Shown one piece after another: positions 1 through 56,298 of a DNA stretch of 56,298 bases. Source of the DNA: a virus (lineage: Duplodnaviria > Caudoviricetes); IMG/VR virus record IMGVR_UViG_3300037861_000279, positions 1-56,298 of that record; one strand, given 5' to 3'. The stretch's first letter is position 1; each line of letters opens with the position of its first letter. The notes under the pieces were generated by a model, which had not been told where the DNA came from, did no database searches, and was given only the letters and a program-made list of their open reading frames with translations. Position numbers and translations under genes: made by a program.

Positions 1-144
1 CAATTCGGATCCGCACTACAGAAAATCTCTAGACTTCTCTACCATTTGCAAGAAGAGACTGGAATTGGCAGCAACCCTCGAAGCTATTCAGTTGAAACTC
101 GGGCGTGGTCTTACTCCAAAAGAAATCTCCGACACCAGGCTACA
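1..144. repeat. Terminal direct repeat copy 1 (circular assembly overlap)
   Basis: 1-144 equals 56155-56298 except C27 vs T56181; the reading frame continues across the junction. Confidence 0.97.
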
Positions 145-3100
145 CATGAAGGGCCTGCAGCAAGCCGGAGCTGACATCGAGGTATCATGTGGTGCCTGCT
201 ATGTTGACTCTGCCAGGATCAAAATCGGTCTTGCCGTGGAGAGATTCATTCGATTGTTTCCTGATTTCGCCCAACACAAAGAGGATCTCCTTTTTCAGCG
301 GGGGCTCGATAAGCTAAAGAGAGATAATCCGGATGTATTCACCAAGTTCACCAGCTACATTGCCCCGCAGAATATCAAGGCATCCGAGTCGAGGACAGAT
401 TATGACTCTGACATCCTCTTCTTGCCGCAAAAATTGGTTGACCTCTTTAACATCAGGTCCGGTTTGAGGTGGCAGTCATGGTCCGATTTCGAGGTTCCTC
501 ATCTTATCGATGCCATGCAGGCAGTCGTTGATCATGCCGCCAGGGGATTAAAGGCCCACACCTACACGAAGGTACCCCTTATGGCCGAATTGTTCGGCAG
601 AACAGGGATTATGATGAACATGTCCCTTATCCCGAAAGGCACTGGAGTTAATAAGGATGGATCTCTGGACTTTGATCCAGTCGAGGGGATGCCTTTTGAT
701 GTAGCCAAAGAACTGCGTAACAGGAAAGAGCACAGCAATACAGTGGGTACCATCGCCATCGGTGTTACTGATGAGAATATCCTGGCCATGATGGCAGATC
801 CTGATATCGACTTTATCATCCCATACCACAAGTCTGGCCTGCCAAAGATCATTGCAGACCGAGAGGGAATGGAAGCTTGGCAAGATTACACCGACTCACA
901 AAACAATAAAATCGGTGATAAAAAGCTGTTCGCCAAGTCTCGGTTCAAGGACATCGACGACTTCAGTGATTGGGACTCGACTCTTGCCTGGTGGGATGTC
1001 ACAAAGACGGGTGATGAGAATGCCAGTGTGTATCTAAAAACTGCCAGGGACGCTGGAGTAAAACCGAAATTTGCCAAGTTCAGCAATAAGCCTGGCTATT
1101 GGAAAACACTCATCGACCGGAAGATGTTCAACAACGATGGGGCCCAGATTATCCAGCAGGCACTTAAACCTGTCTACGACATGGAACTGGTGAACAAAAC
1201 CATCAGCGAGTACCAGGCCCCAAGGTCAGAGGCGGATCCACAGATTGTCGATGATATCGCCAATACAATGCCAAAGACTCTTTCCAATGAAGAGATAAAG
1301 ACAGGATCTCATAAGACCCAGTCACAGCACGACCTTCTTCTCTCGAAAAAGAAATCAGATCGCAGCAAGTCTGAAGAGAAAAGGATTGCCGGCATAAAAG
1401 ATAAGATCAAGAACGGTGTCAAGGCTGAGACTCTCAGATCTGATGGTGCCGCCAAAAAGGAATTGACCAAACCAGAGCAGGTTGGATTGGCTTACCTCTT
1501 CGACCTTCATAAGGCCCAGCAGATGTACCCTGGCGATTATGATCGGTTGATGAAGCTGTATACCAAGGCCGGAGGTCAGTTCTCTTTCTCCAGCCCTGCA
1601 GCCGGAAAAGCCGAGGAGGCCGAGCCAGCACAGGCAGATGGTGAGATCCAATATTCCATCCGGACAAAGCCAGCTCCGAAAGAGACCAAAAAGGCATACA
1701 AATTATTCAGGAAAGTAGGCGATGCAGCACACGCTCTATTCATAGGTCGTTCTATGCCCATGAAAGAAGGAACGTGGTATGACGCACAGTCTCCGCTCAT
1801 AAAAGACTTGGAAGGCCTTCCCGTTAACAAAACATATCTGATCGATAAAAAGGGCAATGCTGTTACCAAGAGATTTGCCAACAAGCAACAAGCTCCAAAC
1901 AAAAAGCTTATAAACGAGGCAGGCTTAGACGGAACAAGATACGTGCTGATCAAGGAGCACAAAAAGACAGGCGAGAGGCTATACCACAACTGGGGCATCA
2001 ATGGCAGTGGTGGAGTCTCCACCTTCGCCATGCGACCAGGCTGGCACTCTACCAACGTTCCGTCAGCTCGACATATAGGTGAGCAGGTAGACGGCAAAGT
2101 TGCCTACCGCAGAGAAGATGAACAATGGGCAGAGATAGAGGTCTCCGCCGATAAAGACTACAACGAGGAAGCAAACAGTCGAGCCTCAAAAGATATACCC
2201 GAGAATATCCCAGAAGACGGTTGGTACTCCTTCCAGACGAATACGAATGCCAACAAGGCACAGGATTGGTTTATCGGGGGAAGCATCAAGATCAACCGAT
2301 TTCTGTCCGACTTAGAAGCACAGGAGATTTCACTGGCTGACGGGTACGAAGCAGACCTGCCTAGAAAGAATGCTACAGAGGTCTCCGAGGCACCAGAAAC
2401 TTCGCTCAAACAACTCAAAGAAAAGCACAGTGGTTCAATCGGCACCATCCTGATCAGTGAGTCTGGCAACGACATTAAATTGGCTTCTATAATTGTACAG
2501 AAAGACAATCGTAAACAAGGCGTGGGTACTGCCTTCATGAACGATCTTGTCGCTCTAGCCGATTCTCAAGGTAAACGAATTTTGCTATCCCCAGGTCAGA
2601 AAGATGACAAGCACGGTACGTCCTCAAGATCGAGATTAGTCAAGTTTTATAAACGGTTCGGTTTTGTTGAGAATAAAGGAAGGAATAAAGACTTCCAAAT
2701 ATCCGAAGGAATGTTTCGTGATCCTGCCGACGATGTCTCCGAGTCTCCAGATACCTCCAAAGAAACAGGTCCGGTACAAGAGACCACACTCGGCGAGATC
2801 CTAAATAAAGCCCAGACCGAATCTGTTAACGAGGGAGTCCGGAAGTTGTCCAAGCTTCTCGGGCAATTCATCCCAGCAGAAAAACTAAAGATCAAAGTTG
2901 TAATCGATCCATCGGCGAGGTCTTCGAGCTTCAAGTCGAACAAAAACACAGGGTTTAAACAGATCACAATAAAGTCATCACTGAAGCATGGAGTTAACTT
3001 GCATGAGATCGTCCATGCAGTCACTGTGCTTGAAATGAATAGCAACCCCGTTCTCAGGCAGAAGGTCAAACACTTGATGCATCAAGTCAAAACGGACCTG

Positions 3101-6100
3101 ATTAAGAACGGTGTCATCTCCAAAGAATTACTCGATGCGGCTGCAGAGTCCAAAACAAGCAGAGAGTTTAAGAGCAACTTCAATGGCAAGATCGACAAGA
3201 CGGTGGGTGATATCGTCTATGCCTTCTTAAATGAGAAAGAGTTCCTGGCCCAGGCATTCTCTTCCAATAAATTCCAGAATCTTCTCAATGGTATTCAGGT
3301 CCGTGATAAGGGTGCTATGAAAAGTGCCTGGGACGCCTTCGTTGAGCTGGTAATGAAAGGTCTCGGAATAAACCCCAAACATGACAATGCCTTTTCTGAG
3401 GCGATCAAACTGGTTGCTGAACTGGCAGGGAAGGAGGCCACAACCGCAGACACAATCTCCTTGGAAAATATGTTCTCTCCAGATTGGTATTCAAGATTAC
3501 AGGGAACCCTGCAGGAAAAAGGAAGTACACAAACTGCAGACCAGTGGCTGAAGTCTATTTCCAGCTGGAAGAAAAAAGGCACCTTGCCTGCTCCGGTTCA
3601 AGAAGAACTTGAATGGTCAGGCCTCGAAGACTACCTGGCAGGACTTGGTAAGGAAAAGGTCTCCCGTGAGCAGCTGGCAAAATTTGTTGCTGACAATGGG
3701 GTTAAACTTGAGGAGGTTGTAAAGCAGGGAGGTAATCCAGACGGAGGTAATCCAGACGGAGACTGGGAGGATGCAACATCAGAGGAAATCCTCGAAGCGT
3801 ATATGGCCATGACCGGTCAGACCGAAGACGAGGTGCAGTGGGTTACCGAGGGAGACATGATAGTAGAACTAAACATGGAACTCGACCCATCAAATGATGC
3901 AGCAAAGTTTGTGGAATACCAACTCCCTGGCGGAAAGAATTATAAAGAGCTGTTGATCACCTTGCCCAAAAAAGAGAACACTCCCGAGAGAAAGAAGTTC
4001 GAATCCTTTATTGGCAAGATGGAGACGAAATATGGCGATGACTGGATAGACGAGATAACAAAAGCGGAAGAGGACGAGAGAAACATTCTCGCAAGGGACT
4101 CCGCAAATTCACAGGATCTCCAGTTCGATTCATCCCATTACGAAGAAGCCAATATCTTGGCTCATATCCGCTTCAACGAACGTTTGGACCCCGATGGTAA
4201 GAAGGTTCTTTTCCTTGAAGAGATCCAGAGTGACTGGCATCAGTCTGGAAAAAAGAAAGGCTATAAGGGAGACAGTGCTAAGTTCACCGAAAAATGGAAA
4301 GATCATGTTGAGAAGATAGAGCCTTACGTTAGTGCAAACAATGAGAACATAGCAGGTGAGGATATAGCGAATGTTGTCGGAGACCCCCTTGTCCTTGAAT
4401 CTATAGGAGTGCCTGAGGCAATAATAAACGAAGGCCTGGCGTTGGTTAAAGAGATGAATAGCGACTTGTCATCAGTGCCAAACGCACCATTCAAGAGCAC
4501 ACCGGCATGGACGATGTTGGCGATGAAACGGATGATACGCTATGCCACGGAGAACGGGTTTGACAAGGTTGCCTGGACTACTGGCGAGCAGCAGGCAGAA
4601 CGGTATGATCTGAGCAAGAAGATAAGCAGAGTTGTCTATGATCCAAACGATAAAACTCTTTTTGCCTATGACCTCGACAGCAAGCAGGTCATGAAAGAGC
4701 GCAATGTAGGAGAAGGTCAGATAGAGGATCACATTGGCAAGGAAGCTGCCAGGAGACTCACCTCAAAGGAAAACACCAATCTCAAGCATGAAAGCAAGGG
4801 AGGAGGAGTAAACTTCTATGAGATAGAAGGCGAAAATCTCAAGGTTGGCGGCGAAGGAATGAAGGCCTTCTATGACAAGATGCTCCCCTCCAACACGCAG
4901 AAATTCATTAAGCAGTTTGGTGGAAAGGTTGAGAATTTTCAGGTCGACGTCGGGTCTCAAGACTGGGTAAGTGGAAGCATGGTCATGGACTCAATGGGTA
5001 TTCCGGAAAAAGACCAGTCAGCCTATTGGGGAAACCTCGAGGCTGAAGAGCGTGATCAACTCCAAGACGACTACCGGAAAGAAATATCACATAGCAACCA
5101 GCAGGGGTTCTCAATAACTCCGGCCATGCAAGAGTCTGCAGGCATGCCTTTGTTCGCACCGAAAAGTTTAGAAGACGATGTGTCCGAAGCACCCCCAGGC
5201 GAAGACTCGATAGAGGGCATCATGTCCAACCTTCGTAAGACTGCCACAACCAAGGCAGATCTAGAGAAGGCTGGCATAGCAAAAGAACAAGAAATAATCG
5301 AACAATATCGGAAACTTGAGACACTTGCGAGAGATCCGCATTCTTCTATCGCAAGCAAGCAGGCGATGATCGCATCCTTCCTGAAAGTTCTTCCCGTGAA
5401 CGTCCGTGCAAAGGTCATCACTCCTTTGACTTTCATCAGCAGGTTTCTGGGAATTGGAACTCATACGAAGCGAATGGATGAGGCCCTTGCCCGTGCGGAA
5501 AAAGAACTTGTCAGTTACTTGAGTCGTGAGATAATTGCCGGTATTCAAAAGGGGATCACTCCCAAGAAACTGGCCAAAAACAGAATCAAGAAAGATACCA
5601 TCGGGCCTGCTGCAGCAAGAGATCTTCAGTTCATCAGGGACACTCTGAAAGAAGAAGATATCGAGGCGATTGCGGTACAGGTCGATGCTCAGATTCTAAG
5701 GAAAGAAGATGAACTCGAGGCGGCAACCGACAAGGAGGCCCTGGTAATCGAAGATGAATTGTCCGATCTCCGGTCTCACAGGAATATCATTGAGACATTT
5801 GGAGATCTCAAAACTCAGAACCTTGAGGATCTGTTGTTTGCCAAGGAGGCCCTGAACTCGATTGTCTCTGAGGGAAGAGCCCTGTGGAGAGCACAGCAGG
5901 AATCTTTCAAGGCAGCATTGGGACCAGTCGTTGCCAAAGTCCAACAGGACATTTCCGGCCAGGAAGATCCGACTGTTGAGTCAGCTGCAGAGGCCACCAA
6001 AAGAAGGGAGAAAGAGGACACAGTTAAGGGACGGGCGAAGAAGACTTGGAATGCAGTTGAGAACAGCATCCTGTCCTGGGAATTTTTGATGAACAAACTC

Positions 6101-8284
6101 TCTACTCTTGCCGGCGATAAAGTCCTGCAGTCATATACAACGAAGAAGATGTTATCAGTGGCCAAAAAAGCAACCGATGACGAGATCCTCTATAAGGATG
6201 AATCTGATACGACTATTCATTCAAAAGCTATGGAGATTTTCAACACCAAGAAGGATGCTGACCTGAATGAGCTTTTCATGGATCAGGAGATAAAGCAATC
6301 CGGAGAAGTCTTCGCATATGGCGAGATGGGGAAACAGCTTGGTGACTTCACCATGTCTCCCATGGAAGCTGCCTACATGTATGCCGTCCGGAAAAACCCC
6401 GACAGTATTCCGACATTCGAAGGCATGCACATGACCGACAAGACCTTCGATGAAATTGAGAAGTTTATCGGGCCGGAGCTGAAAGCGTGGGTCGACTATA
6501 ATGTCGATGAGTATCTGCAGGATTTCCACTACGATGTGAATCAGGTTTACCGGAAAGTTTTCGGAACCAATCTCTCTAAAACACCAGGGTATATCTCATG
6601 GTATCGAGATGTTCCCGGGAAGGTACAGGAAAAGGGTATAGCGGCGAGCCCTTCAGAGTCCGGAACTAAGGGAATGGCGAGGGGTGCATTCAAGGAAAGA
6701 GTCAAGAACACCAACCCCTACCGGATGATGAGCTTCAACGATGTGCTGATGAAGCATGTCGATGAGATGAACAACTTCCGTGCCTGGGCCATGCCTACCA
6801 AAGTTATAAACGGAGTGTTCAATAATCGACAGACACAACGATTGATAACTCAGCACCATGGGGCAAACCTGGCCAAGAATATTAAGCAATTCCAGACGGA
6901 CTTCACCAAGTCTCCGACAGAACTCCGTGGAGATCTGCCGTGGCTCGACCAGTTACGAGGCAACATCACAACGGCAATGACTGCCCTCAATCCTACAATC
7001 TTCCTGAAACAGTTGACCTCAATCCCAGCACTGGCAGAATCAATTCCAGCCAGTGCCTGGGCGAAGAACTCTGCCTTATTTTGGACAAATCCTCTGAAAG
7101 CCTGGAACATATTAAAAGATTCCAAAACCTGGGAAGGACGGAGACAAATGGGCATGGAGCGGGACATACGAACTGCCCAGGTCGTTTCCGGATCACAGGC
7201 TATTGCTAATGTCCGGAACCTGAAGAACAGAGCAATGTTTCTCGTAAAGTGGGGTGATGGTGCGGCTATTCTGGTGGGCGGATATCCTGTTTACAAATAT
7301 CATTTCGACAAAAATTTGAGTGAGATGGGCAAGGCTGCAGCTCACAAGTTTGCCCTTGGTAAGTTCGAAGAGGCCATGGACAGAACCCAGCAGTCTAGCG
7401 GCATAAAGGACCAGGGTAATATCCAGCGTTCCGGCAGCTATGCCAAGCTGTTCACCATGTTTATCACATCTCCAAAGCAATACACCTCCCAGATAACTGC
7501 AGCCATAAGGGGAATACACGCTAATCCAAAGGATGGGGATGCATACAAGAGACTGTTTATTTTTGGCGTACTCATGCCGTCCTTATTCAAAGCGACAGCT
7601 ACTGGCCTCCTTGGTATAATCGGTGGTGATGATGACGATAAAGAAGAGTTTGTCAGTGGCCAGATAAAAGCGATCTTGACCTCTCCTCTCAACGGGATCC
7701 CCATAGTTCGTGATCTCCAAAATGCTGTGTGGGAATCAGCTGTGGGAGAATGGTACGGTACCGATGTCGATTATTCTCCGGCCACTCAGGCCGGAAGTTC
7801 TTTGATGGGCGCCATTTATCATGGGGCAAAGTTGTTGTCCAGTGAAGAGATGACTCCCGAGAAGAAAGAGAAACATCAGAACTTAGCATTGAAAAATTTG
7901 TTTGAAACCGTTGGCTATCGTTTCGGTTTACCTGCCAATACCGTGCGGAAAATGGTTTTGGAAAACTGGGCTGATGTTGCCTCTGGAGAAACCGATTACC
8001 CAATCAGGAGGAGTCTCGGGTTTAGTCGTTATGCCATGGGCGAAAAAGCAAGTCGGTACACCAGAAACAAAACCAAGGTGGAAGATGCCACAAAGCGGAG
8101 AGAGGACAAAGAGCCGAGGGAAGGAGACGGTAATCTCTTAAAGCTCAATGGTTTTCTAAAGGACACAGAAACGAGAGTCAGAAGATTAAAAAAGCTCAAG
8201 GGCCTGGCAAAAACCAAAGAGAGCAAAGATGGCTATTCAGAGAAAATAGAAAAGGTTAGGTCACAATTTAATAATCGGTTCTAG
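2..8284 (+). CDS. Giant polyvalent virion/ejection protein, C-terminal part (continues from 52475 across the junction; whole protein 3987 aa)
   Basis: Frame is open from base 2 (NSDPHYRKSLDFSTICKKR), so the TTG at 65 is not the real start. Contains C-x46-CxxCY, an RPGWH domain, a GNAT (RKQGVGTAFM...FYKRFGF), a HEIVH zincin with EFLAQ, an EEIQSDWHQ domain and a long helical C-terminus. Last gene of the ejection-protein cluster. Confidence 0.9.
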   Translation, partial: NSDPHYRKSLDFSTICKKRLELAATLEAIQLKLGRGLTPKEISDTRLHMKGLQQAGADIEVSCGACYVDSARIKIGLAVERFIRLFPDFAQHKEDLLFQRGLDKLKRDNPDVFTKFTSYIAPQNIKASESRTDYDSDILFLPQKLVDLFNIRSGLRWQSWSDFEVPHLIDAMQAVVDHAARGLKAHTYTKVPLMAELFGRTGIMMNMSLIPKGTGVNKDGSLDFDPVEGMPFDVAKELRNRKEHSNTVGTIAIGVTDENILAMMADPDIDFIIPYHKSGLPKIIADREGMEAWQDYTDSQNNKIGDKKLFAKSRFKDIDDFSDWDSTLAWWDVTKTGDENASVYLKTARDAGVKPKFAKFSNKPGYWKTLIDRKMFNNDGAQIIQQALKPVYDMELVNKTISEYQAPRSEADPQIVDDIANTMPKTLSNEEIKTGSHKTQSQHDLLLSKKKSDRSKSEEKRIAGIKDKIKNGVKAETLRSDGAAKKELTKPEQVGLAYLFDLHKAQQMYPGDYDRLMKLYTKAGGQFSFSSPAAGKAEEAEPAQADGEIQYSIRTKPAPKETKKAYKLFRKVGDAAHALFIGRSMPMKEGTWYDAQSPLIKDLEGLPVNKTYLIDKKGNAVTKRFANKQQAPNKKLINEAGLDGTRYVLIKEHKKTGERLYHNWGINGSGGVSTFAMRPGWHSTNVPSARHIGEQVDGKVAYRREDEQWAEIEVSADKDYNEEANSRASKDIPENIPEDGWYSFQTNTNANKAQDWFIGGSIKINRFLSDLEAQEISLADGYEADLPRKNATEVSEAPETSLKQLKEKHSGSIGTILISESGNDIKLASIIVQKDNRKQGVGTAFMNDLVALADSQGKRILLSPGQKDDKHGTSSRSRLVKFYKRFGFVENKGRNKDFQISEGMFRDPADDVSESPDTSKETGPVQETTLGEILNKAQTESVNEGVRKLSKLLGQFIPAEKLKIKVVIDPSARSSSFKSNKNTGFKQITIKSSLKHGVNLHEIVHAVTVLEMNSNPVLRQKVKHLMHQVKTDLIKNGVISKELLDAAAESKTSREFKSNFNGKIDKTVGDIVYAFLNEKEFLAQAFSSNKFQNLLNGIQVRDKGAMKSAWDAFVELVMKGLGINPKHDNAFSEAIKLVAELAGKEATTADTISLENMFSPDWYSRLQGTLQEKGSTQTADQWLKSISSWKKKGTLPAPVQEELEWSGLEDYLAGLGKEKVSREQLAKFVADNGVKLEEVVKQGGNPDGGNPDGDWEDATSEEILEAYMAMTGQTEDEVQWVTEGDMIVELNMELDPSNDAAKFVEYQLPGGKNYKELLITLPKKENTPERKKFESFIGKMETKYGDDWIDEITKAEEDERNILARDSANSQDLQFDSSHYEEANILAHIRFNERLDPDGKKVLFLEEIQSDWHQSGKKKGYKGDSAKFTEKWKDHVEKIEPYVSANNENIAGEDIANVVGDPLVLESIGVPEAIINEGLALVKEMNSDLSSVPNAPFKSTPAWTMLAMKRMIRYATENGFDKVAWTTGEQQAERYDLSKKISRVVYDPNDKTLFAYDLDSKQVMKERNVGEGQIEDHIGKEAARRLTSKENTNLKHESKGGGVNFYEIEGENLKVGGEGMKAFYDKMLPSNTQKFIKQFGGKVENFQVDVGSQDWVSGSMVMDSMGIPEKDQSAYWGNLEAEERDQLQDDYRKEISHSNQQGFSITPAMQESAGMPLFAPKSLEDDVSEAPPGEDSIEGIMSNLRKTATTKADLEKAGIAKEQEIIEQYRKLETLARDPHSSIASKQAMIASFLKVLPVNVRAKVITPLTFISRFLGIGTHTKRMDEALARAEKELVSYLSREIIAGIQKGITPKKLAKNRIKKDTIGPAAARDLQFIRDTLKEEDIEAIAVQVDAQILRKEDELEAATDKEALVIEDELSDLRSHRNIIETFGDLKTQNLEDLLFAKEALNSIVSEGRALWRAQQESFKAALGPVVAKVQQDISGQEDPTVESAAEATKRREKEDTVKGRAKKTWNAVENSILSWEFLMNKLSTLAGDKVLQSYTTKKMLSVAKKATDDEILYKDESDTTIHSKAMEIFNTKKDADLNELFMDQEIKQSGEVFAYGEMGKQLGDFTMSPMEAAYMYAVRKNPDSIPTFEGMHMTDKTFDEIEKFIGPELKAWVDYNVDEYLQDFHYDVNQVYRKVFGTNLSKTPGYISWYRDVPGKVQEKGIAASPSESGTKGMARGAFKERVKNTNPYRMMSFNDVLMKHVDEMNNFRAWAMPTKVINGVFNNRQTQRLITQHHGANLAKNIKQFQTDFTKSPTELRGDLPWLDQLRGNITTAMTALNPTIFLKQLTSIPALAESIPASAWAKNSALFWTNPLKAWNILKDSKTWEGRRQMGMERDIRTAQVVSGSQAIANVRNLKNRAMFLVKWGDGAAILVGGYPVYKYHFDKNLSEMGKAAAHKFALGKFEEAMDRTQQSSGIKDQGNIQRSGSYAKLFTMFITSPKQYTSQITAAIRGIHANPKDGDAYKRLFIFGVLMPSLFKATATGLLGIIGGDDDDKEEFVSGQIKAILTSPLNGIPIVRDLQNAVWESAVGEWYGTDVDYSPATQAGSSLMGAIYHGAKLLSSEEMTPEKKEKHQNLALKNLFETVGYRFGLPANTVRKMVLENWADVASGETDYPIRRSLGFSRYAMGEKASRYTRNKTKVEDATKRREDKEPREGDGNLLKLNGFLKDTETRVRRLKKLKGLAKTKESKDGYSEKIEKVRSQFNNRF
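3728..3761 (+). repeat. 15-bp in-frame tandem duplication (GGNPD x2)
   Basis: GGAGGTAATCCAGAC twice, then GGAG. Confidence 0.9.
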
Positions 8285-42357: not shown

Positions 42358-43326
42358 ATGTCCCTCGAATTAACAGAAATTCAGGCAATAACTAATGATT
42401 ATTGCGACAAAAAGACCACTGATATCTTTGCAGTGGATAACGTTCTTCTTTACATGCTCATGATGGGCGGAAAGTTCGCCGAGTCTCTCGTTACAGCCGG
42501 AGAGCTTGTAGATGGTGGTGAAAAAATTCGTGTCATCATCGAATATGGCCGAGCGAACACTGGATCTTATGGTAACACCACCAAGATTCCACAGAGCAAA
42601 CAAGAGATCTTGAATGCTGCCCGATTTCGTTGGGGTGGCGCGTATGCTGCTAACGCAATTGATCTCGATGACCAAGTCCAGAATACTGGCGATGCAGCTC
42701 TCGTTGACATGGTTCAGGGAAAAATCAACAACATCAACAAAACCATCCGTGACACCATGGGACAGCAGGTTTACGATGCTGCTGCTACTGAAAAAGATAT
42801 CTTGGGCCTTGGTGATCTGTTCAATGCGACTACCTCTTTGGCTTATGGTTCTATCACTGAAGATGATATCGCAAAATGGAAGCATAACAACACTGCAATT
42901 GGTGCAGCAATATCCTACAAGGTTATGCAGGCTATCCGGAGAACGGCCAAAGTTGGTCAGTCCAAGGATAAGAAGCCCAATCTCTACATTACTACCGATG
43001 TACTGAAGGATGGGTTTGAAAGAACTCTCCAGGCAAACGTCCGGTTTCGTAATGAGAAGATGGTTGATGCTGGTTTTGATAACGTCCTATTTGGTGGTGC
43101 TCCTGTTGTTGCTGATGACCGTCAGGCAGCTGGTAGAATGGATGCTCTCAACCTGAACTATCTCATGTTGAAGACTCATTCCAAGTATCAATTTACCCGT
43201 CCTACCTGGGAATACAGCAAAGATCAGCCAGATACTCTGGTTGCTAATACTCGCTGGATCGGCCAGCTGTGTACCTCACACCGAGCAGCTCACGCACGAT
43301 CTACTGGTCTGACCGAGCCTGCATAA
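42358..43326 (+). CDS. Major capsid protein
   Basis: 322 aa; DGGEKI, AGFDNVLFGGAPVVAD, WIGQL; strong codon bias; follows the scaffold gene. Confidence 0.85.
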   Translation: MSLELTEIQAITNDYCDKKTTDIFAVDNVLLYMLMMGGKFAESLVTAGELVDGGEKIRVIIEYGRANTGSYGNTTKIPQSKQEILNAARFRWGGAYAANAIDLDDQVQNTGDAALVDMVQGKINNINKTIRDTMGQQVYDAAATEKDILGLGDLFNATTSLAYGSITEDDIAKWKHNNTAIGAAISYKVMQAIRRTAKVGQSKDKKPNLYITTDVLKDGFERTLQANVRFRNEKMVDAGFDNVLFGGAPVVADDRQAAGRMDALNLNYLMLKTHSKYQFTRPTWEYSKDQPDTLVANTRWIGQLCTSHRAAHARSTGLTEPA

Positions 43327-52474: not shown

Positions 52475-55400
52475 ATGGCACTTAAACAAGGATTCACCGA
52501 TGGTTGGGCTACCGATGAAGATGTCGAGACTGCTGAGTTAAGCAAACAGACTGCTGATGTCAGCAAACAGACCGATGATACTCTTTCTTCCGACTTCTCT
52601 GACGGGTGGTCTACAGCTGAACCTGTTGCAGAACCTGAACTGGAGACCGGAACAAAGCCCGAGGATTATAGTAGATCTCTGGCCGTTGGTTTAAACAGAT
52701 TTGGTCAAACCATTGGCCGAGCTATCGATGTCGTCGGTAATGTTGATCCGACAGGTGTCTTGGACAAGGTCGGGCAGGATGTGGAATCCTTCTATAAGAA
52801 AGAGGCAGAAGAGGACCAGGCAGCACTGTCTCCCGCAATGCAAGCGGCACAGGAGTTGAAGTACACCACCGATGTCGAGGAGTCATGGAAAGAGGCGCCA
52901 CTCAAAAACTTCATGAGTATTTTCCAAGGCGATGCCTGGAAGAGTCCCGAGAAGGTGGCTGGCAGTTTGCTGCAGTCAGCACCTAGTACCATCGTCGGTA
53001 TGGGAACCGGTATGGGTATCACTCAGGGCTTGATTAAAGAGAGCGCCAAGTTGGTGGCAGACAAGCTGATCAAGAAGGGCATCTCTAGTGGCCTGGCTGG
53101 TGTAATCGGTGGTTTCATTGGAGAGGGTGGAACTGCATCTATCGAGACTGGAAAAGATGTGTACGACTTGGTCATCACCGCACCATTGGAGGTTATCTCC
53201 AAAACTCCTGAATATCAAAAAGCATACGAAGCACTCTCCGGTGAGAAATTAACTGAGAAAGAAAAAGAAAAGCAAGCCAGAGAACTTGTAGCTGACCATG
53301 CCGCCATGAAATCGATGGCAAAGGTGTTTGCTGCGACAGGAATGCTCGGGAGTGTCTCCGGCCATTACATGGGTAAACTCATTGGTGGTGAGGCAACCGG
53401 AGGTGTAGCCAAGAAGGTATTGATCGGTGCCGGAACTGAGGGACTGCAGGAAACACCACAGAGCGGGTTCGAAATAGTCGAGCAGAACTTACAAAAGAAA
53501 AAATTCGTCAACCCAGAGCAAGACATCTGGGAGGGAGTCAAGGAGGGATCTGTCGAGGGTGGTGTTCAAGGAATGGCCATGGGCGGAGGTATGGCAAGTA
53601 TCCCTGCCGTTCTAAGCAGAGGTGGAGTTCAGGAAGAAAAGCGCATCGACAACTCTGCCCTCACAACCCTCAAGGAGGGTGGCCACATCATCTCAGATGA
53701 CTCTGCAGCCGGCGTGGACATCCTCGGGGGTTTCGGATTCGTTAATCAGCCTCTTGATACGGTTATAGAATCCCTGGCCGATGCCCCGATAGAGGTCTTG
53801 ATGGAAAGACTCACTGACGATGTTCTTTCCTCAGAGCATTTCCAGAACATTATTGGCGAGCTGGAAGAATCTGGCGTGAATGTAGAAGACGATGCCGAAG
53901 TCAAGCAGGCCATAATCGAAAGGGTTATTCCGACAATGCAGATGAGCTTGCAGGTTGGTCTCGCAACCTCCAACATGACAACAGTCCAAAAGAGACAGGT
54001 GATCTCAGACCTGAATAACGCAGAGGATCCCAGTGCCAGGGTTAAGGCCGTTGAACAAATAGAGAAAGCGATTGAGAATAAAAAAGTTGCTCAGTCTTGG
54101 GCGAATACTGCTCTTGATAAGATTGATAAAGGGGCAGAGATTGTCCTCGATCAAAGCTTCATCGACTTCGCAGCACAAGACGAGGGAACCCTATCAAGCT
54201 TACGAGAGGAAAGTGTCGGGAATGCCAATGCCGAATATGCCGGAGAGCTGCAGCGTAAACTGAACAACTTGGAGGCACACAAGAATCCTTCCGATAGTGT
54301 CAAGTCAAACATCATACAGATCAAACACCAGATCGGTCAGCTGGAGGAAGGTCTCAAGCAGAACAGGTTCAATATTCTCAAAGCAAAAGCAGAGGGAACC
54401 CCAGCTGAATCTATTACTGTTGATGGTGTTCAGCAAAAGGTTGATGGTATCGAACCGGAGCTTTTAACCTCTGAAGAGCAAATAGAATATGTCGCTTTAA
54501 AGAAAGAGTTCGGCCAGGAAGCTGCAAAGGCACCAGAGAATCAAATCCCAGCCGGAGAAAGTAAAACTGCCGAGCAGGAATCGACTGACAAAGCAGTTAA
54601 GAAAAAAGAGGACTCCTCATCACCAGGGAGTGCCGAGAGTGATCTTCTCTTGGATATGGCAGAAGAGGCCGAGGCTGTTCAGGAAGGTGAGAACACAAAA
54701 AAACGAAAGGCAGACTTCGAAAAGCTATCTGGAGTTGCCTCCGACAAGGCGAAGGTACCTCTTGCTCCAGCTAAAGGTGCAGTTGTCGATGCTGAACTTA
54801 CAAAAGGGGATCCTGTTTCCACCTCCGAGACAACTCCTCGACAACGCAAGGCCCAGAAGAGATTGGATGAGCTTGCTGAAAAAGCAAAGTCATATACTTT
54901 GACTCCGATGGATATGGTTGAGCGTGACGATCTCAATGATGAACTGAAGTCCGGTGTGAAGTATTCCATCAAGGTTCAGGAAGACAGGACCATAAGCAAG
55001 GAAACCACCTTTAACGAGAACCTCTTTGTGTATCTGGATCCCATTAACTCTTCGCAAATGGAAGAGAGGATGGGTAGAGAAAAACTACTGAAACGACATT
55101 CACACGACAATATAGAACACACTTCATCACAATTTGGTGGCTGGAGGGTTTTGTATAAAAACGACAACGGTGACATCGTAGGCTCAATACAAGGTGTGAA
55201 AAATCCGAACAGTGGAGAGGTTATTGTCTCCAATGCCTATGTTCGTCCAGACTTTAGAAGGAAGGGTATCGGAAAAACCCTGATGGAAGAGGCTGAAAAA
55301 AGGTTCAAGAACATAACTCTCAGCGGGGATAATTCAATAACGGGTGCGGCACTGGTGGATAGTGTTGTCAATAAAGAGCAGTATTCCGTGGAGGACTCCA

Positions 55401-56298
55401 CCGGATCGCCAGTAACAATCGAGTCAGTGCGGCAGGCCTTCCCTGGACAGACGGTAAACGAAGGTGCCGATGGTAGCTTCATAGTGCACACCACAGGGGG
55501 GATGGTTGTTACGGTCCATCCGAATGCTGACATCGAAGTTGATGCGACTACTGCATCTGCCGCATACCAGAAGACGATCAAGCCTGGCACCAAAGCAGCA
55601 GGCTCTTTCCAGATGATAGGGGGGAAAGCTGTTATCCAGTTGTCCAAAGAAGCTGGCACCAATCCTCTCAAGCACGAAATATATCATGCCGCCGAGGAAA
55701 TGGTACTCACCCAGGCAGAGATTGAGGCTATTCGTAAGAAACACGGGAACTCTGAGCAACGAGCAGAAGCATACAACAACTGGGATGGCGAGACATCTGC
55801 CCCTCTTTTCCAGAAGATCAAAGAATTTTTCCAACAAGTTGCCAAGGCTCTGGGCCTGAAGGTCGACACCAGTGCTGCAGATTCTCGGAAGGCATTTGGT
55901 AAGATCGAGTCTGGCGAAGTTTGGGCAAGAGACCCCAACGACCCCGATGGTTCTATCTCTGTAGACTATTCTATCCGGTCCTTGCCTGGTACCGAGAAAA
56001 GACTGATCGCCTGGAATGCCGAGCACAAGATGGTCCCTGCTGCCAAAATGAAACAGTACATCAAAGATCTGCAGTCAGTTTCTGCGATGATTCTCGGTGG
56101 ACCAGCATCACTGGATTACATTCCGACCAAAGACATCTACAAGGCACTCAAGGACAATTCGGATCCGCACTACAGAAAATTTCTAGACTTCTCTACCATT
56201 TGCAAGAAGAGACTGGAATTGGCAGCAACCCTCGAAGCTATTCAGTTGAAACTCGGGCGTGGTCTTACTCCAAAAGAAATCTCCGACACCAGGCTACA
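52475..56298 (+). CDS. Giant polyvalent virion/ejection protein, N-terminal part (absent from ORF track; joins 2-8284)
   Basis: ATG directly after the upstream TAA; hand translation shows no stop to the window end; 56156-52475 is divisible by 3, so it joins the frame of base 2. Contains Gly-rich hydrophobic segments, EGLQETPQ, a GNAT (YVRPDFRRKGIGKTLM) and a HEIYH zincin. Confidence 0.92.
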   Translation, partial: MALKQGFTDGWATDEDVETAELSKQTADVSKQTDDTLSSDFSDGWSTAEPVAEPELETGTKPEDYSRSLAVGLNRFGQTIGRAIDVVGNVDPTGVLDKVGQDVESFYKKEAEEDQAALSPAMQAAQELKYTTDVEESWKEAPLKNFMSIFQGDAWKSPEKVAGSLLQSAPSTIVGMGTGMGITQGLIKESAKLVADKLIKKGISSGLAGVIGGFIGEGGTASIETGKDVYDLVITAPLEVISKTPEYQKAYEALSGEKLTEKEKEKQARELVADHAAMKSMAKVFAATGMLGSVSGHYMGKLIGGEATGGVAKKVLIGAGTEGLQETPQSGFEIVEQNLQKKKFVNPEQDIWEGVKEGSVEGGVQGMAMGGGMASIPAVLSRGGVQEEKRIDNSALTTLKEGGHIISDDSAAGVDILGGFGFVNQPLDTVIESLADAPIEVLMERLTDDVLSSEHFQNIIGELEESGVNVEDDAEVKQAIIERVIPTMQMSLQVGLATSNMTTVQKRQVISDLNNAEDPSARVKAVEQIEKAIENKKVAQSWANTALDKIDKGAEIVLDQSFIDFAAQDEGTLSSLREESVGNANAEYAGELQRKLNNLEAHKNPSDSVKSNIIQIKHQIGQLEEGLKQNRFNILKAKAEGTPAESITVDGVQQKVDGIEPELLTSEEQIEYVALKKEFGQEAAKAPENQIPAGESKTAEQESTDKAVKKKEDSSSPGSAESDLLLDMAEEAEAVQEGENTKKRKADFEKLSGVASDKAKVPLAPAKGAVVDAELTKGDPVSTSETTPRQRKAQKRLDELAEKAKSYTLTPMDMVERDDLNDELKSGVKYSIKVQEDRTISKETTFNENLFVYLDPINSSQMEERMGREKLLKRHSHDNIEHTSSQFGGWRVLYKNDNGDIVGSIQGVKNPNSGEVIVSNAYVRPDFRRKGIGKTLMEEAEKRFKNITLSGDNSITGAALVDSVVNKEQYSVEDSTGSPVTIESVRQAFPGQTVNEGADGSFIVHTTGGMVVTVHPNADIEVDATTASAAYQKTIKPGTKAAGSFQMIGGKAVIQLSKEAGTNPLKHEIYHAAEEMVLTQAEIEAIRKKHGNSEQRAEAYNNWDGETSAPLFQKIKEFFQQVAKALGLKVDTSAADSRKAFGKIESGEVWARDPNDPDGSISVDYSIRSLPGTEKRLIAWNAEHKMVPAAKMKQYIKDLQSVSAMILGGPASLDYIPTKDIYKALKDNSDPHYRKFLDFSTICKKRLELAATLEAIQLKLGRGLTPKEISDTRL
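56155..56298. repeat. Terminal direct repeat copy 2
   Basis: Identical to 1-144 except T56181 vs C27. Confidence 0.97.

Follow-up and report, generated by a model that had tools for sequence, protein, structure and literature searches.

Junction peptides and two putative metallopeptidase domains in a giant polyvalent protein of a tailed virus

The DNA analysed here (the window) covers positions 1 to 56,298 of the IMG/VR virus record IMGVR_UViG_3300037861_000279 (Duplodnaviria; Caudoviricetes), 56,298 nucleotides in all, and encodes a protein of 3987 residues with two HExxH domains, termed zincin-1 and zincin-2, among other modules. A sequence-only reading of this DNA had noted that a peptide, VSE[AS]P, recurs at the ends of the domains around zincin-2 and that another, YS[IV], occurs around zincin-1, and had proposed that two self-processing cassettes, each with its own protease and cut site, were fused into one ejection protein. 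Motif scans, homologue searches and structure predictions suggest that the four junctions in the second half of the protein may be recognition and cleavage sites of the embedded zincin-2 peptidase, a reading to which we give a probability of about 0.4.

The giant protein and its junction peptides

The first 144 bases of the window repeat bases 56155-56298 with one mismatch, at base 27 (end-to-end comparison), and the contig is a circularly permuted, i.e. circular or terminally redundant, assembly. Because of this overlap of 144 nucleotides, 52475..56296 and 2..8284 form a single open reading frame (ORF) of 3987 amino acids (aa), from which an overlap of 47 aa has been removed; the mismatch alters one residue (S or F). 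A Pfam scan of the protein recognised two GNAT domains and nothing else, and in PHROGs its N-terminal part weakly matches 'virion RNA polymerase' (phrog_2206, E 2.8e-7). In all stop-to-stop frames of at least 100 aa in the window, HExxH occurs only as HEIYH (residue 1067, zincin-1) and HEIVH (residue 2228, zincin-2). The features of the protein, placed by regular expressions (regex), the ends of BLAST high-scoring segment pairs (HSPs) and AlphaFold2 models, are the following; homologues are cited by P numbers.

52475..56298 (P0002: to 56296), plus strand: giant ORF part 1 (P0002, 1274 aa), residues 1-1274; runs off the window end and resumes at base 1
54962..54970, plus strand: Y-S-I junction (residue 830), before GNAT-1; regex
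55073..55312, plus strand: GNAT-1 acetyltransferase domain, residues 867-946; PF00583 (E 2.8e-9), PF13508, PF13673
55382..55390, plus strand: Y-S-V junction (residue 970), N edge of zincin-1; regex, and HSPs of P0015 and P0261 start at an aligned K-Y-S
55397..55954, plus strand: putative zincin-1 domain, residues ~975-1160, HEIYH at 55673-55687; cluster 3, 13 segments
55967..55975, plus strand: Y-S-I junction (residue 1165), C edge of zincin-1; regex, HSP of P0263
2..8284, plus strand: giant ORF part 2 (P0001, 2760 aa), residues 1228-3987; first 47 residues duplicate the window end
1652..1660, plus strand: Y-S-I junction (residue 1778), before the RPGWH domain; regex
1661..2368, plus strand: RPGWH domain, function unknown, residues ~1781-2016; phrog_30118 (E 1.3e-23) and homology blocks
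2378..2395, plus strand: E-V-S-E-A-P junction (residues 2020-2025); regex, HSP ends
2402..2725, plus strand: GNAT-2 acetyltransferase domain, residues ~2028-2135; PF13508 (E 4.6e-6)
2732..2749, plus strand: D-V-S-E-S-P junction (residues 2138-2143), 2-3 residues ahead of the folded zincin-2 core; regex, HSP ends, model
2756..3442, plus strand: putative zincin-2 domain, residues 2146-2374, HEIVH at 3002-3016
3449..3466, plus strand: D-T-I-S-L-E junction (residues 2377-2382), 3 residues past the last zincin-2 helix; regex, models
3488..5146, plus strand: EEIQSD domain, residues ~2390-2942; separate homology block, no Pfam match
5177..5194, plus strand: D-V-S-E-A-P junction (residues 2953-2958), past the EEIQSD domain in a segment of low model confidence; regex, HSP ends, model
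5210..8284, plus strand: C-terminal region of ~1020 residues without either junction motif

By its composition, which combines domains of unrelated biochemistry (two GNAT domains, two HExxH domains of different clusters, RPGWH and EEIQSD), the protein falls among the polyvalent proteins. When its second half was used as the query, 1488 homologues were retrieved at E <= 1e-3; these are giant proteins with lengths of 1.6-4.6 thousand residues. Among the 120 homologues listed, most have just the EEIQSD domain (~570 residues) in common with it, and many carry PF18760, PF18857, PF18823, PF18834 or others, which places the protein among polyvalent proteins by homology as well. PF18760, PF18823 and PF18834 we take to be polyvalent-protein-associated domains; P0262, which carries PF18857, is annotated as 'LPD38 domain-containing protein'. 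The C-terminal region of ~1020 residues is common to the longest relatives (P0015, P0022, P0025, P0035, P0009, P0069). As context for a possible delivery of the protein with the DNA, the gene follows genes for the terminase, portal, a coiled-coil scaffold-like ORF, major capsid protein, an SU10-type adaptor and tail proteins, and the zincin-2 model resembles a solved ejectosome chain (see below).

In the 3987-aa protein, [DE]VSE[AS]P occurs only at residues 2020, 2138 and 2953, with the weaker DTISLE at 2377, and YS[IV] only at residues 830, 970, 1165 and 1778. The coordinates that had been given for EVSEAP (2378), DVSESP (2732), DVSEAP (5177) and DTISLE (3449) are exact, and VSE[AS]P is indeed confined to the half with the HEIVH peptidase, as had been claimed. 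For 4+4 sites, the chance of a perfect split between the halves is 2/70. Per protein, 0.0078 copies of VSE[AS]P are expected, and at least one copy appeared in 22 of 3000 shuffles (Poisson P for three or more copies 7.8e-8), and four or more copies of YS[IV] appeared in 29 of 3000. In a post hoc check, 375 of 400 shuffles held some 5-mer with four fixed and one two-fold degenerate position at least three times, and five such patterns with three or more copies exist in the giant protein itself; after this test we rejected recurrence statistics alone as proof.

More weight lies on placement, by which the motifs are real inter-module junctions. In BLAST comparisons with 119 homologues (186 HSPs), all four sites fall at HSP borders: 11 ends in residues 2001-2025 and 6 starts in 2026-2050 on the GNAT-2 side, 7 ends in 2126-2150 and 4 starts in 2151-2175 on the N side of zincin-2, 6 ends in 2351-2375 and 69 starts in 2376-2400 on its C side, and 59 ends in 2926-2950 and 14 in 2951-2975 after the EEIQSD domain. 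Three of the sites also lie in AlphaFold2 segments with a predicted local distance difference test (pLDDT) score below 50, which partly reflects thin alignment depth, as this alone lowers pLDDT: DVSESP and DTISLE at the two edges of the zincin-2 core, and, in the model of the EEIQSD domain, DTISLE (model residues 12-17) and DVSEAP (588-593) inside the segments 1-24 and 578-598. EVSEAP at 2020 is outside both models and is placed by HSP ends only. The earlier placement of the motifs at domain ends is thus borne out, and a site motif at module borders and outside folded domains (for EVSEAP by HSP ends) is what is seen in self-processing polyproteins. The three DNA copies of the motif share only the codons they need and differ at synonymous positions, so that the peptide rather than the DNA appears to be under selection. 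For the same reason, a DNA-level recombination signal at the motifs was ruled out.

The zincin-2 domain and the E-type motif in its relatives

The invariant residues of zincin-2 are H2228, E2229, H2232, Y2300, N2304, E2307 and F2308. H2228, E2229, H2232 and E2307 are unchanged in 38 aligned proteins, with N-x-x-E-F following HExxH, and both HExxH and E2307 lie in helices of the model, the arrangement of gluzincin-type sequences; E2307 would be the third zinc ligand. The core (2146-2374) was modelled by AlphaFold2 with block-mean pLDDT values of 81-96, except for its last few residues. Foldseek searches against PDB gave no match at E <= 1e-3 for the models of zincin-2 and the EEIQSD domain. In VIA-align comparisons, anthrax lethal factor (1yqy) aligned with zincin-2 at Z 5.1 (root mean square deviation, rmsd, 4.8; 144 residues aligned) and other peptidases at lower scores (4l7a, Z 4.7; PPEP-3, 4.0; ArdC 6sna, 3.8; 3e11, 3.4), all below the noise level of the tool. 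A predicted complex of the zincin-2 core with a 41-residue DVSEAP peptide and Zn scored 0.19 (mark 0.32) and counts neither way.

A profile-free scan of 1.84 billion representative proteins yielded 142 representatives related to zincin-2 at E <= 1e-3, including 19 that reach E <= 1e-30. Among these relatives and other polyvalent proteins, the motif [DE][IV]SE[ASG], hereafter the E-type motif, is enriched only where zincin-2 is present: it occurs 16 times, against 4.0 expected, in 96 proteins with zincin-2 (13 against 3.9 without the giant protein), and 5 times, against 5.7 expected, in 113 polyvalent proteins lacking it. The self pieces P0001-P0003 and the fragment P0127 are left out of these sets. 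The shorter form [IV]SE[ASG] lies within 7 residues of a zincin-2 edge in 6 of its 39 matches in the 95 other proteins, where ~0.3 would be expected; these are upstream of the domain in P0123 and P0130 and downstream in P0130, P0141, P0150 and P0151, proteins less than 50% identical to the giant protein.

In the core clade, the flanks on both sides of zincin-2 follow a looser pattern, x-[FYSNM]-E-[SAG]-[LP] (V-F-E-A-P, I-N-E-S-L, S-F-E-A-L, N-E-S-P, M-F-E-L). A version of it picked after inspection of these flanks, E[AS][PL][DE][TS], occurs 11 times, against 1.24 expected, in 22 core-clade proteins, with 8 of the 11 copies at -3 to +6 of a zincin-2 edge, and 6 times, against 8.5 expected, in proteins without zincin-2. 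The related giant proteins of the cultured Ruegeria phage 45A6 (3912 aa) and Vibrio phage 1.232.O (3292 aa) show no E-type junction set.

Module tails and the first-half junctions

Homologues of single modules of the giant protein end in different peptides. GNAT-2, which is followed by D-D-V-S-E-S in the giant protein, has homologues with the tails D-V-L-Y-S (P0016), E-I-R-F-S (P0058) and D-I-T-K-S (P0106). The tails of ADP-ribosyltransferase (ART) domains read P-D-I-R-[YFK]-S in, by our reading, ~25 of 64 regex rows, D-D-I-S-E-A-P in both copies of a duplicated module of P0004, the closest relative, and D-I-R-Y-N in six rows, which come from four members (P0076, P0174, P0180, P0182) of a side branch of the zincin-2 family; they end in Q in all six proteins with a cluster-2 (HE[ST]GHF-type) zincin. 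In the tail of the EEIQSD domain, P-L-F-x, x is Q in 4 of 5 rows before a cluster-2 zincin (the fifth, a regex miss, also reads Q), E in 4 of 6 proteins before a core zincin-2, and S or A in 34 of the 40 rows that lack any zincin within 220 residues. The junction residues thus tend to follow the peptidase clade, the behaviour expected of cognate cleavage sites. Where the giant protein has D-T-I-S-L-E, P0004 aligns N-A-I-S-L-S.

Junctions ending in Q (P-L-F-Q, R-I-L-M-Q, R-I-L-Y-Q) were seen throughout a group of proteins with cluster-2 zincins (P0030, P0031, P0045, P0047, P0057, P0063, P0085, P0092, P0113, P0120). Counting [ILVM]-x-[YFM]-Z over whole proteins for each zincin cluster was uninformative, the core tripeptide being common inside folded domains.

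The EEIQSD module may itself consist of a GNAT core interrupted by large inserts. In the VIA-align comparison of its AlphaFold2 model, the top 50 rows are all GNAT-fold acyltransferases (Z 7.2-9.8, 110-151 residues aligned); the alignments spread over model residues 96-577, with Z near the noise level of the tool and uniform rows. One of its low-confidence inserts contains a tandem G-G-N-P-D-G-G-N-P-D-G (residues 2470-2480; window 3725-3760, plus strand).

In the first half, YS[IV] occurs on both sides of zincin-1, and it flanks this domain in the giant protein and in 2 of 5 close relatives: P0015 has K-Y-S on both sides, P0261 K-Y-S upstream and I-Q-Y-Q downstream. The HSP of P0263 starts a few residues upstream of residue 1165, with M-L-S-I-R aligned to D-Y-S-I-R, and junctions in the wider zincin-1 cluster also read F-Q, L-F-K and M-Y-Q. 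YS[IV] is a variant of a junction, [IVL]-x-[YFKM]-[SQN], that is widespread in polyvalent proteins, whether these carry other zincins or none in cis; at least six junction-bearing proteins (P0006, P0013, P0042, P0044, P0088, P0021) have neither HExxH nor HExxxH. Since the same junction class occurs in proteins without HExxH, a private YS[IV] code of zincin-1 is not supported. The earlier pairing of YS[IV] with the other peptidase therefore stands for its position, first-half sites only and bracketing zincin-1, but not for its exclusiveness. With two zincin-1 relatives found in the near length class and four in the longer class, six are too few for a test of a zincin-1 code. P0260, a zincin-1 relative of 2058 residues, has lost HExxH, and a regex search finds no [IVL]-x-[YF]-S anywhere in it.

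Cleavage sites, linker signatures and known systems

In the reading we favour, the giant protein is a polyvalent virion or ejection protein of nine modules joined by eight short junction peptides, and the second-half junctions are cleavage sites. Zincin-2 would bind the extended junction peptides and cut within or beside [VI]-S-E-[AS]-P, the exact bond not being readable from the sequence. The first cuts would fall on its own two flanks and the next on the RPGWH/GNAT-2 and EEIQSD/C-terminal borders; they would free the RPGWH domain, GNAT-2, the EEIQSD (GNAT-fold-like) module and the C-terminal region of ~1020 residues, either inside the capsid or once the protein has been ejected. In the first half, the Y-S-[IV] junctions belong to the common class of polyvalent junctions. 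We infer that the motifs are cut, at which bond and at what time, and that zincin-2 is the cutter, from sequences and predicted structures. A broader proposal is that each clade of zinc peptidases reads a junction of its own (one ending in S-E-[AS]-P for HEIVH, in [YFM]-Q for HE[ST]GHF and in [YF]-S for the others), so that the giant protein would hold two orthogonal pairs and its two halves could be taken apart, during ejection or later, either each on its own or in a set order; this we consider unlikely. The fused pair of cassettes proposed earlier survives in the link between the E-type motif and zincin-2, but not in a private code for zincin-1.

Several observations weigh against cleavage by zincin-2. 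The strict motif is limited to a small clade (the giant protein, P0004, P0123, P0130, P0133 and P0141), and shared descent explains part of its association with zincin-2, because the members of this clade are related: the two motif copies of P0004 belong to a single duplicated module, and flanks are shared within the pairs P0128/P0131 and P0134/P0135. The close zincin-2 relatives P0007, P0008, P0012, P0014, P0018 and P0036 lack strict VSE[AS]P altogether. Six close zincin-2 relatives have no [IV]SE[ASG] at their flanks, which read M-F-E-L, V-Y-E-D or L-F-Q. P0004 combines E-type, T-Y-Y-A and P-L-F-S junctions with a single HExxH, and P0014 and P0122 also mix junction types. P values for the looser pattern are inflated, as it was defined on the same flanks. 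The 36 loci on viral contigs provide no independent test, being mostly the same proteins or relatives at least 84% identical; among the few new ones, L013 (N-Y-E-S-L-E) and L012 (D-F-E-S-L-D) fit, L014 (S-F-A-A-L-D) does not, and L002 has no motif in its downstream flank. The predicted zincin fold is only a weak assignment by structure, and the flank motifs may belong to the zincin module by inheritance instead of being its substrates. For the claim that peptidase clade and linker motif go together across homologues, enrichment and edge clustering around zincin-2 thus remain, tempered by related samples, post hoc patterns and the mixed proteins.

Alternatively, the motifs would be uncleaved junction or linker signatures, such as flexible hinges or docking strands, which move with modules, or with the zincin module, in domain shuffling while the protein acts as one chain. 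We regard this as somewhat unlikely. It would account for the [IVL]-x-[YFKM]-[SQN] junctions of proteins without HExxH or HExxxH and for the fixed offsets of the flank motifs from the zincin-2 core, as inherited sequence would show, and P-L-F-[SA] seems to be part of the EEIQSD domain, as its conserved end. In addition, the HExxH-bearing virion RNA polymerase (vRNAP) of phage N4 is reported as packaged unprocessed in the available text of Iyer 2017 (PMC5512222), and the searched passages of an N4 structure paper (PMC13434306) mention no cleavage of gp50. However, the same peptide stands on both sides of zincin-2 and at non-homologous junctions, namely the RPGWH, GNAT and ART tails and the tail of a putative methyltransferase in P0123, the latter assigned by eye from an N-P-P-F motif without a family search. 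The tails of homologous modules also differ in step with the peptidase clade present, and the motif lies outside folded cores. We favour cleavage by zincin-2 over passive linkers.

The sites might also be cut by another protease, be it zincin-1 acting on both motifs, a protease of the host once the protein is ejected, or a capsid-maturation protease that went unrecognised. Prohead proteases of the T4 type (gp21) and phiKZ type (gp175) cut at x-x-Glu sites, which V-S-E followed by A or S resembles, with Glu at the putative P1 position, preceded at a distance of two positions by a hydrophobic residue. The pattern [IV]-x-x-[SA] is common to both junction types, and junctions in proteins without a zincin in cis would, if cut, need an enzyme acting in trans. 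Yet the E-type motif is enriched only in zincin-2 proteins, and the ORF between the portal and capsid genes weakly matches coiled-coil types only, as a scaffold would. A prohead-type protease cutting after Glu is unlikely because no protease family was recognised in the 34 other window ORFs of at least 150 aa (30 scanned in PHROGs, 4 in Pfam only), a scan that shorter ORFs and 8 overlapping frames fell outside and that could miss a remote homologue. Taken together, cleavage by another protease seems improbable to us. That the recurrence is chance without function is very improbable: comparable degenerate 5-mers are frequent in the shuffles described above, but all four sites fall on independently defined module borders and the motif recurs at zincin-2 edges of distant proteins.

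Viral polyproteins of picornaviruses and potyviruses are cut by their own proteases, 3C and NIa, at cognate sites. The giant protein resembles them in its embedded putative protease domain with candidate flanking sites of its own and in a short candidate site motif at each module border; it differs in that its enzyme is a putative metallopeptidase in a virion protein of a DNA phage, with maybe two site types per chain. Closer likenesses to zincin-2 exist among podophage ejection proteins, which are shorter (~1100-1340 residues) and carry no chain of cargo enzymes. The PhiM1 ejectosome chain 8vb2_A stands out among structural matches to the zincin-2 model (Z 9.1, rmsd 4.0, 148 residues, 20% identity), the 'internal virion protein' 9sfn_G matches the zincin-2 sequence from H-E-x-x-H to the E-F-L-A-Q region (E 0.004), and Ralstonia phiKMV-like 'internal virion proteins with endolysin domain' (H8-H18) are ~30% identical to it in tblastn. 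A zincin-2 family domain with an intact H-E-x-x-H is present in solved ejectosome and internal virion proteins of phiKMV/KP34-like podophages. A text search of the PhiM1 paper and the Ar-KM preprint returned no mention of a peptidase, protease or cleavage. The ejected giant protein gp50 of coliphage N4 has a C-terminal domain composed of an HExxH subdomain followed by a large helical part, according to the passages searched in PMC13434306; in contrast to gp50, no RNA polymerase module was found in the giant protein, whose middle consists of GNAT, RPGWH and other modules.

The nearest precedent is the class of polyvalent proteins of phages and conjugative elements as such. The consulted text of Iyer 2017 (PMC5512222) describes one to five zincin-like metallopeptidase (MPTase) domains per protein in 12 clades, proposes autoprocessing by these domains into separate effectors and discusses its timing, and names no junction or cleavage motif. 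With that set the giant protein shares the combination of unrelated enzyme domains, the interspersed MPTase domains and N4 vRNAP-like members; it differs from what is described there in having residue-exact junction peptides, one type of which follows one peptidase clade, and two types per chain. The supplementary alignments of the same study may define the clades here called zincin-1 and zincin-2. In view of these proteins, the statement of the sequence-only reading that it knew of no described two-protease, two-code phage polyprotein is too strong as regards the two proteases, polyvalent proteins with several peptidase domains being already known. What is new is that adjoining halves of a single chain have different junction types, each of which brackets an HExxH domain of its own. 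The literature we searched named no cut site for polyvalent proteins, reported no such cleavage and contained no clade-tied junction motif.

In the giant protein, candidate sites exact to the residue lie on either side of one peptidase domain, and the second junction type in the same chain could serve as a built-in control for specificity. If cleavage by zincin-2 is correct, the products of thousands of uncharacterised polyvalent proteins would become predictable from their junction peptides, and a set of sequence-specific metallopeptidases might be gained.

Some further features of the window and of related proteins were observed. At the N-terminus of the giant protein (window 52490-52615, plus strand), F-[TS]-D-G-W-[AS]-T occurs twice, ~34 residues apart. 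Relatives have repeated N-terminal peptides of their own (D-D-I-F-G twice in P0008 and P0018, V-D-Y-S-x-V-x-L-D-S-V-F-D-D three times in P0123), and such repeats may be a packaging or docking signal. Between 14393 and 30270 the window contains an early or lysogeny-like module with a RecE-type exonuclease, a NinB-like protein, an SbcC-like ATPase, a DnaD/O-like replication initiator, the anti-repressor Ant, a radical SAM protein and a ParA-like partition protein, a gene content that suggests a temperate or plasmid-like life style. The major capsid protein (window 42358-43326, plus strand) has its nearest cultured-virus match in Methanosarcina virus MetMV (38.6% identity over 93%). One homologue of the giant protein is labelled as coming from a metagenome-assembled genome of Micrarchaeia; the other window genes look phage-like in the bacterial sense.

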